Source of the DNA: Octopus vulgaris
Lineage: Eukaryota
Assembly: GCA_951406725.2 (NCBI GenBank)
Contig: OX597823.1
Span: forward strand, 50,654,001-50,718,000
Length of the DNA stretch: 64,000 bases
Direction of reading: 5' to 3'
Positions 26,328 through 63,566 of the stretch are shown one piece after another. The first letter of the stretch is position 1, and every line of letters begins with the position of its first letter. The notes under the pieces are model-generated. The model did not search any database and was not told where the DNA came from. It saw nothing but the letters and a program-made list of their open reading frames with translations. The position numbers and the translations under genes were made by a program.

Positions 26328-26610
26328 ATGAACTGCAGAAGCGGAAATTCAATATGCTGCGTCAAATGCCCGAATTCTGAAGAGATATACGTTGGTCAGA
26401 CTGGGAATAGATTATCTGAACATTCACATGTGCACCGACAACAAATTAAGTACCGTGATATCCGTCAGATCCTTTTAAGTGACCATCTGGCAACATGTGG
26501 TCAGAAAAAGTTTATAATATTCTCATTCTACAATCTTTACAACTGAAAGGAAGTCGAAAGAACAAATTCAAGAAAATAATTTTCTTGATAGATTCACACC
26601 TATTTTAAAT
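26328..26610 (+). pseudogene. Penelope-like element GIY-YIG endonuclease 3' fragment
   Basis: NCRSGNSICCVKCPNSEEIYVGQTGNRLSEHSHVHRQQI...LSDHLATC, continuing to ...RFTPILN; followed by (TAA)n. Confidence 0.8.
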
Positions 26611-29908: not shown

Positions 29909-29978
<70 letters not shown>

Positions 29979-30050
29979 GGTATGTAGAAAAATACAACAT
30001 GGACAAGAACGTATAACTCTTAGAAGACGACACAATAAACACGGACAGGA

Positions 30051-30215
30051 CATTCGAAACCCTCAGTCTTCAGTCAAGAACCGGATCATCGTAGTAATTT
30101 CGGCTGATTAATCTTGAGATTACTAGATCACGGCCAGCCCTCCAAGAAAAACCAAGCAACAAGCATTAGAAAAACTAAGCTGGAAGCGTAGATTTCCTGG
30201 AAGAAGGATCGAATG
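30051..30215 (-). ncRNA. Permuted hammerhead-like motif, copy 1 (core 30067-30139; predicted cut 30118/30117)
   Basis: Minus: GGCTGG CCGTGATC TAGTAAT C TCAAGA TTAA TCAGCC GAA ATTACTA CGAT GATCCGG T TCTTGA CTGAAGA. Confidence 0.7.
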
Positions 30216-30909
30216 CATACGAACACCAGGACAGCAAAAGGGACAGATATAAAAAAACAAAAAACAATAATGGAATACAGAAACATGAAATACAGAAGCA
30301 TTAACGGTGAAAACAACAGTGTCTTACGACTGATAACAAGCAAACAAATTTTTTCTCTGGCGCAATGGAAAAAGCCTTTATAGTGGCGGACGAAAACAGC
30401 GATGTTAACAAGACAAGGGTCAGAAGCTGAAAGGCAGATTTCGGCCAACAGTCACGTGACAGAGAAGAGGGAAAAGAAAAGAAAGGGAAGCAAAGGAAGA
30501 GAGAGAGAGAGGAGAGAGAGAGAGGAGGGACAAACGCAACAAAGAGAGAGAAGAGAGAGAAAGAAGGAATCAGAGAGGAGAAGGGATGGGTGTCGAAGAA
30601 TGACCTGTGAGTGCAGAGCGAGACAAAGAAATAGGAGGGTAGTGGAAGACTAGACCAAAGAATCAGAGGAAAGAGAAGAGAAAAAGAGGATGAGTAGAGA
30701 GAAAAGAGAGAGAGAGGGGGACAGATCAAGTAAAAATGAGAGAGAGAGAGAGACAAACAGAGAGTCGTACCAATTATTAAGAATATGTGCTCACATAAAT
30801 GTTAAGGGGGGTACGGGGCGCCTGGAATATATGTTAAGGTATGTAGAAAAATACAACATGGACAAGAACGTATAACTCTTAGAAGACGACACAATAAACA
30901 CGGACAGGA

Positions 30910-31074
30910 CATTCGAAACCCTCAGTCTTCAGTCAAGAACCGGATCATCGTAGTAATTTCGGCTGATTAATCTTGAGATTACTAGATCACGGCCAGCCCT
31001 CCAAGAAAAACCAAGCAACAAGCATTAGAAAAACTAAGCTGGAAGCGTAGATTTCCTGGAAGAAGGATCGAATG
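30910..31074 (-). ncRNA. Permuted hammerhead-like motif, copy 2 (core 30926-30998)
   Basis: Identical to copy 1. Confidence 0.7.
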
Positions 31075-31353
31075 CATACGAACACCAGGACAGCAAAAGG
31101 GACAGATATAAAAAAACAAAAAACAATAATGGAATACAGAAACATGAAATACAGAAGCATTAACGGTGAAAACAACAGTGTCTTACGACTGATAACAAGC
31201 AAACAAATTTTTTCTCTGGCGCAATGGAAAAAGCCTTTATAGTGGCGGACGAAAACAGCGATGTTAACAAGACAAGGGTCAGAAGCTGAAAGGCAGATTT
31301 CGGCCAACAGTCACGTGACAGAGAAGAGGGAAAAGAAAAGAAAGGGAAGCAAA

Positions 31354-31387
<34 letters not shown>

Positions 31388-31768
31388 GGACAAACGCAAC
31401 AAAGAGAGAGAAGAGAGAGAAAGAAGGAATCAGAGAGGAGAAGGGATGGGTGTCGAAGAATGACCTGTGAGTGCAGAGCGAGACAAAGAAATAGGAGGGT
31501 AGTGGAAGACTAGACCAAAGAATCAGAGGAAAGAGAAGAGAAAAAGAGGATGAGTAGAGAGAAAAGAGAGAGAGGGGGGACAGATCAAGTAAAAATGAGA
31601 GAGAGAGAGAGACAAACAGAGAGTCGTACCAATTATTAAGAATATGTGCTCACATAAATGTTAAGGGGGGTACGGGGCGCCTGGAATATATGTTAAGGTA
31701 TGTAGAAAAATACAACATGGACAAGAACGTATAACTCTTAGAAGACGACACAATAAACACGGACAGGA

Positions 31769-31933
31769 CATTCGAAACCCTCAGTCTTCAGTCAAGAACC
31801 GGATCATCGTAGTAATTTCGGCTGATTAATCTTGAGATTACTAGATCACGGCCAGCCCTCCAAGAAAAACCAAGCAACAAGCATTAGAAAAACTAAGCTG
31901 GAAGCGTAGATTTCCTGGAAGAAGGATCGAATG
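31769..31933 (-). ncRNA. Permuted hammerhead-like motif, copy 3 (core 31785-31857)
   Basis: Identical to copy 1. Confidence 0.7.
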
Positions 31934-32629
31934 CATACGAACACCAGGACAGCAAAAGGGACAGATATAAAAAAACAAAAAACAATAATGGAATACAGAA
32001 ACATGAAATACAGAAGCATTAACGGTGAAAACAACAGTGTCTTACGACTGATAACAAGCAAACAAATTTTTTCTCTGGCGCAATGGAAAAAGCCTTTATA
32101 GTGGCGGACGAAAACAGCGATGTTAACAAGACAAGGGTCAGAAGCTGAAAGGCAGATTTCGGCCAACAGTCACGTGACAGAGAAGAGGGAAAAGAAAAGA
32201 AAGGGAAGCAAAGGAAGAGAGAGAGAGAGGGAGAGAGAGAGAGGAGGGACAAACGCAACAAAGAGAGAGAAGAGAGAGAAAGAAGGAATCAGAGAGGAGA
32301 AGGGATGGGTGTCGAAGAATGACCTGTGAGTGCAGAGCGAGACAAAGAAATAGGAGGGTAGTGGAAGACTAGACCAAAGAATCAGAGGAAAGAGAAGAGA
32401 AAAAGAGGATGAGTAGAGAGAAAAGAGAGAGAGAGGGGGGACAGATCAAGTAAAAATGAGAGAGAGAGAGAGACAAACAGAGAGTCGTACCAATTATTAA
32501 GAATATGTGCTCACATAAATGTTAAGGGGGGTACGGGGCGCCTGGAATATATGTTAAGGTATGTAGAAAAATACAACATGGACAAGAACGTATAACTCTT
32601 AGAAGACGACACAATAAACACGGACAGGA

Positions 32630-32794
32630 CATTCGAAACCCTCAGTCTTCAGTCAAGAACCGGATCATCGTAGTAATTTCGGCTGATTAATCTTGAGATT
32701 ACTAGATCACGGCCAGCCCTCCAAGAAAAACCAAGCAACAAGCATTAGAAAAACTAAGCTGGAAGCGTAGATTTCCTGGAAGAAGGATCGAATG
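32630..32794 (-). ncRNA. Permuted hammerhead-like motif, copy 4 (core 32646-32718)
   Basis: Identical to copy 1. Confidence 0.7.
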
Positions 32795-33640
32795 CATACG
32801 AACACCAGGACAGCAAAAGGGACAGATATAAAAAAACAAAAAACAATAATGGAATACAGAAACATGAAATACAGAAGCATTAACGGTGAAAACAACAGTG
32901 TCTTACGACTGATAACAAGCAAACAAATTTTTTCTCTGGCGCAATGGAAAAAGCCTTTATAGTGGCGGACGAAAACAGCGATGTTAACAAGACAAGGGTC
33001 AGAAGCTGAAAGGCAGATTTCGGCCAACAGTCACGTGACAGAGAAGAGGGAAAAGAAAAGAAAGAGAAGCAAAGGAAGAGAGAGAGAGAGGAGAGAGAGA
33101 GAGAGGGACAAACGCAACAAAGAGAGAGAAGAGAGAGAAAGAAGGAATCAGAGAGGAGAAGGGATGGGTGTCGAAGAATGACCTGTGAGTGCAGAGCGAG
33201 ACAAAGAAATAGGAGGGTAGTGGAAGACTAGACCAAAGAATCAGAGGAAAGAGAAGAGAAAAAGAGGATGAGTAGAGAGAAAAGAGAGAGAGAGGGGGAC
33301 AGATCAAGTAAAAATGAGAGAGAGAGAGAGACAAACAGAGAGTCGTACCAATTATTAAGAATATGTGCTCACATATATATATATATATATATGTGTGTGT
33401 GTTTGTATATTTGAGGATTTTGTGTATATACATCACATCCATCCATCCATCCATCCATCCATCCATACCATACATACATACATACATACATACATACATG
33501 CGTACATCTAAATATGAAGAGAAGTGCAATTTGCGATATTTTGAGTTTATGTACTTTCCATATATTTATACCAACGCGGATATTCAGGAAGCATTTGAGA
33601 CATTCGCACACACACATACGCATACACGCACGCACACACA

Positions 33641-43936: not shown

Positions 43937-44340
43937 TACCTCAGAGAAGACCTGGATGGAAAGCACTCAGCATGCAAAAAAAAAGAAGACTATGCCCGGA
44001 AGGTTGAAAAAGACAGTAGAATTGACACGAAGCGCAGGCCCTCTTGGACACTTTGAAGGCTATGCGTTTGCAATCCAAGAACAGGAGATTACCACAAAGT
44101 ACCTGGTGAACAAGAGAGACAGTGACGCTCTTGTAATCCGAAGGTGCAACTGCATGTGTAGGCAATGTCATGTTTCTGTAGAAGATGTAATGCATGTGAT
44201 TAGTAGCTGCCCTAAAATGTCGCCACGGTACTATCTCCCTATGCGGCACGATGTTGTCGCTAAAACAATTTACAATGCAATCCGCAAGAAAGACTGAAAT
44301 AAACTTAGAAAATCCTTCTTTAGAATCAAAATGTCTCACG
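43937..44340 (+). pseudogene. R4-clade (RLE) LINE fragment, CCHC finger region
   Basis: FAIQEQEITTKYL...CRQCHVSVEDVMHVISSCPKMSPRYYLPMRHDVVAKTIY; paralogous to 46540-46920. Confidence 0.85.
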
Positions 44341-54130: not shown

Positions 54131-54221
54131 TATGTATATATATCTATATACCGGAGTAAACACATAAATGTGAAACAAGGTGGAAAAAAGAGTACTCAAA
54201 TACCAGTGGTAGAGTAATATG

Positions 54222-54379
54222 CTTTATTTTAAGCAGCAGAAAATTCAACAAAATCTGTTACTCTGAGTTTCTCGTTGCCGTTCATCAGACACTTTTTGCT
54301 TGCAAAAACTGTCTGATGAACGGCAACGAGAAACTCAGAGTAACAGATTTTGTTGAATTTTCTGCTGCTTAAAATAAAG
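54222..54379. repeat. Near-perfect 158-bp palindrome
   Basis: Arms CTTTATTTTAAGCAGCAG...CATCAGACAC and reverse complement; 1 mismatch near the centre. Confidence 0.95.
54305..54351 (+). ncRNA. Type I minimal hammerhead ribozyme (mirror copy on minus strand at ~54250-54296)
   Basis: CTGT CTGATGA a-CG-GCAA-CG-a GAA ACTC a GAGT A^ACAG: stem I CTGT/ACAG, GNRA-capped stem II, stem III ACTC/GAGT, GUA triplet. Confidence 0.8.
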
Positions 54380-54992: not shown

Positions 54993-55445
54993 CGGAATAT
55001 AGATGTTGGTTTGACCGCCGTCCGTGCAACATCTATATTCCTCCCTGTGCCTGTCAAACCTTGTATCCCTGCCGTAAGGCCTTATTTCCATGCACACCAG
55101 CTTAATTTAATTCGTCCTTAGTCGAAAGACACCTGTTTTTATGTCCTGTTATTTGTATTTGTGAAACATACTCCGTTATTTTTCAGTCCTTGTTTTCGTA
55201 TACATTCGCTGCTTTCTTCCAAGGAATCTAATGCTCTTAGATTAGTTTTTCATTGGGGCTGGCCAGATTGGAGCAATCTCGAGTATAACCAGCCGAAGTT
55301 GCAAAGATAATCTGGAACTCGACTGAAGAAAGAAAACTCCGAATGACCCGTCCTTGTTTTCTTTGTATCGTCTATCTGGATTTTTTGCTGTCCCTTTTTT
55401 GTTTCACCTAACTCTCTGGATGTTTTACGTTCTTGTCCCATTTTG
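54993..55445 (+). mobile_element. Retrozyme-like element (subfamily 1-related), single diverged copy
   Basis: Homologous to the array unit: GTCGAAAGACAC, CATTCG, motif core, CGAATG, ACGTTCTTGTCC; ends in (TA)/(TG)n. Confidence 0.75.
55203..55345 (+). ncRNA. Permuted hammerhead-like motif (core 55257-55329; predicted cut after 55278)
   Basis: GGCTGG CCAGATTG GAGCAAT C TCGAGT ATAA CCAGCC GAA GTTGCAA AGAT AATCTGG A ACTCGA CTGAAGA; 73 nt, collinear with the array motif. Confidence 0.7.
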
Positions 55446-55637
55446 TATAATATATATGTGTGGGTGTGTGTGTACGCGTGTGTGTATATATACAGGTATA
55501 TACATACTTGTATATATATACATATGTATATATATATATATATGTATATACATATATTTATATGTATATATATATACATATATACATGTATGTATGTATA
55601 TGCACACACACACGCACGAACATACATTTATATATAT

Positions 55638-62099: not shown

Positions 62100-63566
62100 G
62101 GACTCAGATGGAGAGATTTTAGCAAATGCAGATATGAACTGCATTGGCAGAAATTTGATCTACTGAATTAAATGACCGAATTGCGAGGAACTATTTATTG
62201 GCGAGACAGGGAATGCATTATGAGAATGCTCACGAGTCCACAGACAACAAATCTGGAACACCAATGTTCGCCAAATTTCATTGAGCGAACATATAGAAAC
62301 CTGTGGTCAGAAAATGTTCCTAATTTTTCGCTTCCACAAACTACGTTGACACAAGTGAGGTTGGAAGAAAACGTTTTATTAAAATGTTCAAACCTGTTCT
62401 GAACGGAAATAACAACAATAATATAATAACCAGTTAATGATGTTGATTAAAAAATATCTTTAACATATGGATATAAGCAAATTACAGAATATCGGTACGC
62501 CTGGCAAACCGTGACGTTTGAGCTTCATGCGGATTGGTCAAAACCGTATTCCAAAATTTCAGCTTATTGGAGCGTTCTAAGAGGTACTACAGTTGTCAAG
62601 AACCCAAATGTCAGTTAAATACATTTTGGAATCTGATGATTAATACGAACGTATGAAAGTGCTAATTGAACGTTATGAACATTACAAAATATTGTTTAAA
62701 TGTTAAAATACCATAATAAAAAATTTGAAAACCAGGCCATGTTTTAATTCATTCAACTGATACACACACATACACACACACATAATATATATACATAGAC
62801 ACACACACACATAATATATATACATAGACACACACACACAATTCAAAAAAATTATCGGACGACGATTATTTGTGGCCGGGTTTTAACCCGGGCCGTTTTT
62901 TGACCTTTCAATAGCTTAAAACTGACAGGGATAGCATACTCATCCTGTAGATTGTATTTCCTCATTAGTAGAGACAGGATCTTCTTTGGTGAGGCAGAAA
63001 TTGCGTGGATCCAATGAATCAGCTTGTTGAAGCTTGCATTCACCTCATACCAACCTCCCGCATTACAATGCTGGGAATTTTTTTATTGAAGCTTACTCCT
63101 CTAGGTATGCGTGCCCCAGGACTGTTTATTTTTGTATTCACAGCTAACCTTCACATCTGTAGGCTCGGTGAATGGAAATTTTGTCTCCAAAAAGATAGTT
63201 TGGCTCAATGATCCCCAACTATCTTAAAAGCCCTCCCTCCAGATTTTCTCATAGCCGTTCACACTGCCGTGTGTTATAACTTAAGAAAAAAGAAAAAAAT
63301 ACAACAGAATATAAAAATATCTTAAAATATATTCTTTTATTTTCTTCCTATTTTTTTCGATATTTCCTAATAATTGATTGAATAGTTAGCAGCTTGACAT
63401 AAAATAATTAAGAAATCCTCCTCTATCCGTCGCCAGATATGTGAGAATCCACAATATTTTTCTTAGGTCTTTTTGCTTTTGCATTTTTTCCATTATAATT
63501 GAAATGGTAAGAAAAAAATGTCGATAGTTTCGACACATGAACAAATCTTGAGTACACTAACAATTA

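Follow-up and report, generated by a model that had tools for sequence, protein, structure and literature searches.

The window, a 64,000-nucleotide stretch of Octopus vulgaris DNA, contains a tandem array that is probably an insertion of a young, non-coding and non-autonomous retroelement. The element has a unit of about 860 nt with a predicted permuted hammerhead ribozyme, and it likely passes through an RNA circle moved by a Penelope-like reverse transcriptase (RT). As read in the assembled sequence, the array is a genuine insertion of a dispersed family. It consists of 3.96 head-to-tail units of 859, 859, 861 and 822 bp on the minus strand (Table 1), in agreement with the first-pass annotation, which had given about 3.95 units with periods of 859, 859 and 861 inserted in (TA)n; (TA)n flanks the array at both ends. 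The unit has a low GC content and, as also described there, no credible ORF: 21 stop-to-stop frames of at least 40 aa overlap unit 1, and the longest, a low-complexity frame of 166 aa, had no Pfam match. Differences between units are limited to 1-3 changes within (GA)n/G tracts and a single substitution, carried by unit 4 at unit position 511. A specific loss of about 40 bp had been described for the last unit. The 37 bp absent from unit 4 are instead its variable truncation end, which differs in place in every family copy. The fixed and variable ends together indicate that the RNA sense of the array is most likely the minus strand.

Table 1. Coordinates of the array, its predicted ribozyme domains and a related copy in the window
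Feature	Position	Strand	Remark
Whole insertion, 3.96 units	29975..33375	-	Sense taken from the fixed and variable ends
Unit 1, 859 bp	29975..30833	-	29975 is the fixed 3' end of the family and inferred RT start
Unit 2, 859 bp	30834..31692	-	
Unit 3, 861 bp	31693..32553	-	
Unit 4, 822 bp	32554..33375	-	Ends at variable 5' truncation
(TA)n target, fixed end	29942..29974	.	
(TA)n, variable end	33373..33392	.	Short microhomology overlap with unit
Predicted ribozyme domain, unit 1	30050..30216	-	About 170 nt, seven helices; P5/P6 closes
P5/P6 helix, 5' strand	30203..30216	-	Partner 30050-30064, after core A9
Hairpin P0	30141..30202	-	Runs into G10.1
Stem II 5' strand (from G10.1)	30134..30139	-	Displaced upstream of cleavage block
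P4 helix, 5' strand	30126..30133	-	Joins distal ends of stems I and II; partner 30081-30087
Block S	30112..30125	-	Stem III strand, AUC triplet, stem I strand; predicted cut 30118/30117
Block G	30092..30107	-	Stem II 3' strand, GAAA, stem III strand
Stem I strand and CUGAAGA core	30067..30079	-	Block C minus its stem II strand
Predicted ribozyme domain, unit 2	30909..31075	-	Predicted cut 30977/30976
Predicted ribozyme domain, unit 3	31768..31934	-	Predicted cut 31836/31835
Predicted ribozyme domain, unit 4	32629..32795	-	Predicted cut 32697/32696
Older sister-subfamily copy	55195..55449	+	Same ribozyme layout, ends at (TA)n; 5' limit provisional

The family is dispersed through the genome as monomers and multimers, each insertion being fixed at one end and variable at the other. 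Exact fixed-end junctions mark at least 825 dispersed insertions and exact internal junctions number 335, against 0 for the controls. Among 21 loci, 19 begin at unit position 1 beside (TA)n, one begins at position 7 and one is rearranged, and the opposite end is variable. For a closer comparison of ends and variants 88 loci were sampled in genome order, two duplicates with the same flanks (L076 and L090) having been removed first, and simple-repeat tracts were masked. L093 and L095, which occupy the same places as L056 and L055, were removed before the arrays were compared. The insertion ends crowd just short of the predicted ribozyme cut and then stop. First-unit ends fall in positions 124-143 in 25 of the 73 copies at risk versus 2 of 48 in positions 144-163 (Fisher p=4.8e-5), and four lie exactly at position 143. 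Copies of 143 bp or less account for 40 of the 88 loci. In the sister subfamilies, 79 copies start at the predicted cut versus 9 that start 1-3 nt past it.

The ribozyme in each unit is a predicted hammerhead with a non-circular S-G-C block order, which is not that of type I, II or III. One hammerhead-like motif per unit had been noted at first pass; its parts are present in each unit, but the order is not a standard one and Rfam returned no hammerhead or other ribozyme, its 40 matches (39 microRNA and one snoRNA, on simple repeats) all being below gathering scores. In the predicted domain the 5' strand of stem II comes first, followed by block S, block G and CUGAnGA. The P5/P6 helix and hairpin P0 are placed between A9 and G10.1, and P4 forms a clamp across stems I and II. 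The core elements CUGANGA, GAAA, NUH, A15.1-U16.1 and G10.1-C11.1 are all present. The minus-strand cut coordinates predicted earlier (30118, 30977, 31836 and 32697) are correct and correspond to the C17 positions, and the fixed end and the truncation edge support both the cut site and the minus strand as the RNA sense.

The block-order pattern had 7,862 matches in the genome versus 0 for the reversed control and is thus not a product of chance. Across 31 natural copies the seven helices covary, with 86.7% of cells paired over 54 pairs, compared to 30-49% for slid controls. Double changes occur at 23 pairs, a number matched by 3 of 500 shuffles of the 31-copy alignment, these counts not being probabilities because the aligned rows are related. 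The paired cells amount to 95.7% in stem I, 88.2% in stem II, 94.8% in stem III and 88.2% in P4, with double changes at 4, 3, 3 and 3 pairs, respectively. The invariance of the core is partly set by the search pattern in most of the aligned rows (L156-L197); two subfamilies that were found without the core pattern, and are only 72% identical to each other, also agree in every core residue and in the G10.1-C11.1 pair. The older copy at 55195..55449, 72% identical over 148 bp, shows compensatory changes in the ribozyme, and the fold signal of this decayed copy is weak (z=-1.7, 12 of 200 shuffles). Folding of 30020-30170 alone gave no signal (z=+0.52). When the P0 and P5/P6 partners were included, z was -3.0 without any constraint, only 1 of 200 shuffles being as low, and P5/P6, P0 and stem II formed locally in a single unit and closed the domain.

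A standard stem II placed directly after CUGAnGA was considered and rejected, with 31 of 186 cells paired; the four standard registers gave 31, 67, 53 and 12 of 186. In the window subfamily a 4-bp pairing after CUGAAGA does exist, at a two-nucleotide offset.

The predicted ribozyme resembles the type-SGC hammerheads (HRIMA-1; Eckert et al. 2023, PMC10085705) in its S-G-C order and in the helix that joins the distal ends of stems I and II. The linker from stem I to stem II is 4 nt in octopus and typically 3 nt in type SGC. In the latter CUGAnGA leads straight into stem II and the two were assumed to be contiguous, whereas in octopus the 5' strand of stem II appears to lie upstream, with two extra helices between A9 and G10.1 and block C broken. 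Such a split, as modeled, would contradict the contiguity assumption, and no natural precedent for it was found in the literature. No description of this motif in octopus, and none of a helix placed at A9/G10.1, was found in the literature covered; the repeat itself may already have an entry in a catalogue such as Repbase or Dfam. The terms "octopus" and "mollus" had 0 matches in the Eckert supplement, and a metagenome pattern scan also gave 0 matches. Type-SGC hammerheads have not been found in the genomes of known organisms (PMC10085705), in contrast to the thousands of matches that the octopus motif has in an animal genome.

The variants carried by successive units record how arrays may have been copied. 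L106 is a 5.6-unit array with eight sense positions that show an A-to-G change in each of its six units; in unit 5 one of these sites reads as a 1-nt gap within a run of G. The eight-change haplotype is confined to this locus (6 of 6 genome matches). It disrupts both GAAA and stem I. Their shared and private character is editing-like and suggests, at the level of sequence, that one RNA was read repeatedly. Among rare variants covered by at least two units, 15 are common to all units (at least eight of these in L106) and 21 are unshared, and units 1 and 3 of L106 have two variants in common that are missing from its other units. In the window array, position 511 reads G, G, G and A in units 1 to 4, unit 4 having the common allele and units 1-3 the rare one. 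Elsewhere L050 reads A, G, and 46 of 50 loci have A only. With two alleles among its units, the window array is not a clean single-circle copy. The retrozyme-like rolling-circle interpretation of the first-pass annotation is supported, with qualifications: the fixed 3' end at (TA)n, the truncation edge at the cut and the L106 barcode are in its favor, but the ribozyme is not type I and the window alleles are mixed.

The genome contains Penelope-like elements with a 781-aa RT plus GIY-YIG frames that end at (TA)n. The unit itself has no RT or GIY-YIG open reading frame, and a profile search found no autonomous carrier of the ribozyme among 25 of the 148 GIY-YIG matches and five full elements. 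The one intact Penelope-like family examined has no similarity to the unit, and its terminal repeat includes a short hammerhead-like motif of canonical order, read by eye. Penelope fragments near family copies are scattered and unjoined to them. No RNA-type records holding the unit sequence were found. Assembled contigs of four presumed RNA runs contain parts of the unit and the junction; these carry no strand, end or circle information, and the loose end of one is presumably cDNA adaptor sequence. The family is also present in runs labelled as four other organisms.

In the mechanism proposed here, the minus strand would be transcribed through an array. The ~170-nt domain of each unit, its fold backed by covariation, would then cut after AUC at 30118 and the equivalent positions, as the fold and the truncation edge imply. 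The monomers would remain linear or be ligated into circles, probably by the host RtcB as in Cervera 2020. An endonuclease, likely Penelope-like, would nick (TA)n and its RT would start internally, at a single site that lies 143 nt away from the cut. On a linear template the RT would run off the cut end, leaving copies of 143 bp or less, and on a circular template it would pass the cut and go on, generating up to 5.6 units. Later duplication or homogenisation of some units at the DNA level is likely. Somewhat more likely than not is a broader picture, in which an animal genome carries thousands of copies of an active hammerhead of undescribed topology, cut linear RNAs are fixed as short copies, single ADAR-edited circles are copied repeatedly, and edits that disable the ribozyme favor the longest arrays.

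It is unlikely, though not extremely so, that the ribozyme cuts but older arrays gave rise to the multi-unit ones through uncleaved linear or dimer-circle transcripts, together with DNA duplication or conversion, and that no monomer circle is reread. Such an origin would fit the mixed alleles of the window and L050 arrays, the private variants common to L106 units 1 and 3, and the 21 unshared rare variants. Ends in later units point the same way, 3 of 22 lying at 119-143 versus 0.64 expected, as from partly cut linear multimers. However, the first and last units of L106 show the same eight editing-like changes, which are absent from the rest of the genome, and their sharing counts against linear templates because editing would strike different parts of a linear RNA independently. 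An array copied linearly, from internal starts and with truncation, would, moreover, only become shorter. An assembly artefact or an ordinary satellite has next to no probability: the array was read from the assembly alone and the (GA)n differences between units could be polishing errors, but 24 of the 88 loci sampled are multi-unit, their flanks are distinct and their haplotypes specific to the locus, and sister families have other periods, e.g., 713 bp.

The motif could also be structured but non-catalytic, the edge at 143 marking a transcription start, a host nuclease site or an RT stop. Catalysis is a prediction and the core connectivity is unprecedented; in the available text of PMC11167929 the hammerhead of Anolis Penelope is dispensable in vitro and no reads end at its cut, and cleavage was observed in only 1 of 9 predicted retrozymes (Li et al. 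2026, bioRxiv 10.64898/2026.07.22.740005). This explanation is nonetheless improbable, as the edge sits on the exact bond predicted by the fold, the core and G10.1-C11.1 are the same in the two subfamilies found without the core pattern, and N7 of the core is free to vary among copies. An RT stop would be expected at the 3' foot of the structure, at positions ~75-100, where there is no edge. Still less probable is an active hammerhead assembled in dimer mode, its strands coming from adjacent units or from two molecules, rather than by a pseudoknotted fold of one unit. Dimeric action has been reported for axolotl retrozymes (PMC7229834), and P4 is separated from stem III by a linker of just 0-3 nt, which makes for a tight geometry and poses a puzzle likewise noted for some SGC ribozymes (Eckert et al. 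2023, PMC10085705). Against it stands the local folding of P5/P6, P0 and stem II, which closes the domain within one unit.

As a retroelement with a predicted ribozyme, the octopus family is like the metazoan non-LTR retrozymes in having low-GC, non-coding tandem units with one hammerhead each (here predicted), dispersed monomers and multimers, and co-occurring Penelope-like elements. At 859 bp the unit exceeds the 170-400 nt given by Cervera and de la Pena (2020, PMC7229834) and is inside the range of 51-972 bp of a preprint (Li, Clavereau and Pollet 2026, bioRxiv 10.64898/2026.07.22.740005), so that the earlier statement that described units are all shorter does not hold. Unlike those retrozymes, the octopus unit has a predicted ribozyme that is not type I, and type I descriptors would therefore miss it. 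The element also differs in inserting into (TA)n from a fixed internal start, and in a genomic record that appears to mark both the cut and repeated copying. Endonuclease-bearing Penelope-like elements (Craig et al. 2021; Frangieh et al. 2024) share the (TA)n targeting, variable 5' truncation, internal RT start and tandem insertions; the Penelope RT, according to the available text of PMC11167929, starts within its template at a site non-homologous to the cut DNA. In contrast to the Penelope-like pseudo-LTR hammerheads, the octopus unit has no ORF and does not resemble the terminal repeat of the examined intact family. On C7 and C18, sister copies lying close together in pairs were considered as pseudo-LTRs around an ORF but rejected as local duplications with no such ORF.

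The octopus element, judged from its sequence, appears to extend both the known retrozymes and the known hammerheads by a variant. Non-circularly permuted hammerheads have hitherto come almost only from metatranscriptomes, and their discoverers took the CUGAnGA block as unsplittable (Eckert 2023, PMC10085705). If the prediction is true, a covarying, high-copy genomic family breaks both limits and widens the structure space of ribozymes. Censuses of ribozymes in animal genomes may then be incomplete, including the claims of Penelope-like clades without hammerheads. The idea that retrozyme circles undergo rolling-circle reverse transcription is a standing one that has little direct evidence behind it. 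It would now be testable by sequence, a truncation edge corresponding to the cut and common A-to-G barcodes to a single template that was reread.

The repeat array in the window consists of 3.96 head-to-tail units, and the first-pass description of a non-coding array with periods of 859, 859 and 861 bp lying in (TA)n was confirmed. The units differ from one another by 1-3 purine-tract changes plus one substitution. The array has a GC content of 41-42%, a strong strand skew and no credible ORF, and it is flanked on both sides by (TA)n runs in a 2.8 Gb genome that is rich in simple repeats.

The array is a member of a dispersed retroelement family. With a 505-bp query, the best 40 of 1,345 candidates in the genome were full-length matches of 99-100% identity, spread over many contigs. 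Among 21 loci, one is rearranged; 19 start at unit position 1 adjoining (TA)n and one at position 7. The far end lies at varying places, giving about 0.7-4.2 units. Exact fixed-end junctions occur 825 times in the genome and exact internal junctions 335 times, with none for reversed controls. Such a pair of ends is what target-primed reverse transcription is known to leave behind. Since one end is fixed and the other varies, the minus strand is the RNA sense. The roughly 40 bp noted earlier as missing from the last unit are indeed absent, but this is the variable end seen in other copies and not a specific loss. None of the sequence datasets that contain the unit is registered as RNA. Assembled contigs of four presumed RNA runs, from which strand, ends and circles are not readable, include the junction and portions of the unit. 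The family was also found in runs labelled as four other organisms.

Sister subfamilies are present as well, one copy being in the window (72% identity over 148 bp). The block pattern that they share occurs 7,862 times in the genome, overlaps and array units counted; the control gave 0. The spacing of adjacent matches points to periods of about 699, 713, 769, 779 and 859 bp, and the sequence of the 713-bp unit was read through. A GC-rich short motif just beyond the fixed end is kept in sister families (L026, L037, L157, L189), although the sequence around it has diverged between subfamilies; it is a candidate promoter or reverse transcriptase (RT) recognition site. At two loci, L017 and L185, newer insertions sit in (TA)n beside older copies. 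L185 also has two sister-family copies in facing orientation, separated by about 400 bp, which could give rise to dsRNA.

Coordinates of the array and associated features (L-numbers are other genomic loci)
Feature	Location	Remarks
Array units 1-4	window, starts 29975, 30834, 31693, 32554; array end 33375	859, 859, 861, 822 bp
GC-rich motif	window 30806-30825	
Sister subfamily copy	window 55195-55449	
Sister family, 713-bp unit	L157:1500-2230	AUA cleavage triplet; stem III one pair longer; permuted layout as in window
Newer insertion beside older copy	L017:1338-1500	
Young autonomous Penelope-like family	L223-L227, e.g. L224:1744-5006	781-aa RT + GIY-YIG ORF
Decayed Penelope-like endonuclease fragments	window 26334-26540, 62128-62307	tblastn E 7e-5 and 2e-6
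Head-to-head inverted pair of short element	window 54218-54379	adjoins (TA)n
Zinc-knuckle-like open stretch	window 43950-44297	CxxC...H...C

An Rfam search of the window found no hammerhead, and GAAA is absent within 53 nt downstream of CUGAAGA. All parts of the hammerhead-like motif that had been proposed are present on the minus strand, but their order differs. Block S comprises a stem III strand, AUC and a stem I strand. A 4-nt linker separates it from block G (stem II strand, GAAA, stem III strand), which is followed by the second stem I strand and then CUGAAGA. This order of predicted ribozyme parts is type SGC as defined in PMC10085705. The stem II 3' strand has its partner upstream of block S, with 164 of 186 cells paired, and this partner provides G10.1-C11.1. 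A9 leads to helix P5/P6, whose partner strand lies about 130 nt upstream, and hairpin P0 comes next, leading into G10.1. Placement of stem II directly after CUGAnGA was rejected, as the following bases pair with the stem II 3' strand in just 31/186 cells.

The predicted seven-helix fold (54 pairs) covaries across natural copies. In alignment A2, 31 copies from several subfamilies whose rows are related, yielded the structure and were mostly fetched by a pattern containing the core, 86.7% of cells in the seven helices are paired versus 82.9% in shuffles (0/500 reach it). Double changes occur in 23 of the 54 pairs (3/500) and in 82 cells (0/500), the pairs including four in stem I and three each in stem II, stem III and P4. 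Slid-helix controls gave 30-49% pairing; the count of further pair types in A2 was no higher than in shuffles (452/500). Folding without constraints (z=-3.0) finds P5/P6, P0, stem II and some of stem III. The model used there has no means of showing stem I, which is pseudoknotted. The predicted ribozyme would cleave itself.

According to the accessible text of Eckert et al. (2023, PMC10085705), SGC ribozymes are validated in vitro, have a linker of typically 3 nt and a helix that connects stems I and II, and are not found in the genomes of known organisms, and CUGAnGA is assumed to be always contiguous with stem II. The octopus motif has the same block order but differs in that CUGAnGA and stem II are separated, which breaks block C. 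The core insertions in the accessible part of Perreault et al. (2011) are short, and PMC8370743 yielded nothing pertinent. In a search short on subscription papers and repeat databases, no published description of the octopus motif was found. The predicted ribozyme is different from, and more unusual than, the one first proposed. The earlier retrozyme-like rolling-circle reading is supported by the fixed and variable ends, the truncation edge and the L106 barcode; the element works like the non-LTR retrozymes of Cervera and de la Pena (2020) and Li et al. (2026), as far as their accessible text goes, but its hammerhead is not type I.

The truncation edge was seen by sampling the first 90 fixed ends in genome order, removing 2 duplicates and mapping the far ends of the remaining 88. 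Forty lie at position 143 or lower, 23 later in the first unit and 24 beyond one full unit; one is rearranged. Of 73 copies at risk in positions 124-143, 25 end there; of 48 at risk in 144-163, 2 do (p=4.8e-5). TA/AT microhomologies are available in both intervals alike. Four ends are exactly at 143 (window 30117), the first base past the predicted scissile bond. In a separate count of sister subfamilies, 79 copies start at the predicted cut versus 9 starting 1-3 nt beyond. This is most simply explained if many templates carried their 5' end at the predicted bond.

The longest sampled array, L106 (5.6 units), differs from a sister lineage by eight A-to-G changes (RNA sense, positions 89-141) in all six units; in unit 5, one of them appears as a gap of 1 nt. 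No allele turns up in more than one of the other sampled loci, and a genome search for the haplotype gave 6 matches, every one inside the L106 array. A cluster of A-to-G changes is typical of ADAR editing, a process that is strong in cephalopods, and ADAR is the probable source of those in L106. A single edited molecule read several times accounts for this barcode. Separate linear-RNA stretches would not get identical edits. The unit RNA probably circularises. The changes disrupt GAAA and stem I, and with these broken the edited circle, in this one case, would be unable to reopen. Other observations cloud this picture. Two further variants common to units 1 and 3 of L106 suggest later DNA duplication. 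Position 511 reads G,G,G,A in the window units and A,G in the copy at L050, with A alone in 46/50 loci; rare variants are common to all units in 15 cases and not in 21. These patterns may stem from dimer templates, conversion or polishing errors. A second copy, L136, has three private A-to-G changes (RNA sense, positions 96, 131 and 146), possibly also editing.

Established are the array and its family, the polarity of the ends, the covarying fold, the truncation edge and the edit-like barcode. For the enzyme, Penelope-like elements are abundant (148 GIY-YIG matches, 150 scored); many have a 781-aa RT plus GIY-YIG frame, and 5/5 examined end at (TA)n. Neither the ribozyme profile nor the unit had a match among 25 endonuclease loci and 5 full elements. 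The young autonomous family has an upstream overlapping ORF, 333-479 aa long where it is open, and a ~1-kb 3' region carrying short internal repeats. Its terminus, read by eye, shows a hammerhead-like motif with U3/A8 replacing C3/G8 and a palindromic stem III. The inverted pair in the window bears a minimal hammerhead-like motif in canonical order (CUGAUGA cores on the minus strand at 54288 and the plus strand at 54313) and resembles the inverted terminus of a further Penelope-like family. The zinc-knuckle-like motif in the window is of a type with which non-LTR retrotransposon ORFs end. The accessible text of Craig et al. (2021) describes Naiads as targeting (TA)n and occurring in Octopus, with no detectable hammerhead. 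That of Frangieh et al. (2024, PMC11167929) reports the Anolis hammerhead as dispensable and places the Penelope RT start inside its RNA, at a site without homology to the cut DNA. Such an internal start fits a fixed start on a circle. A Penelope-like enzyme probably mobilises the unit RNA.
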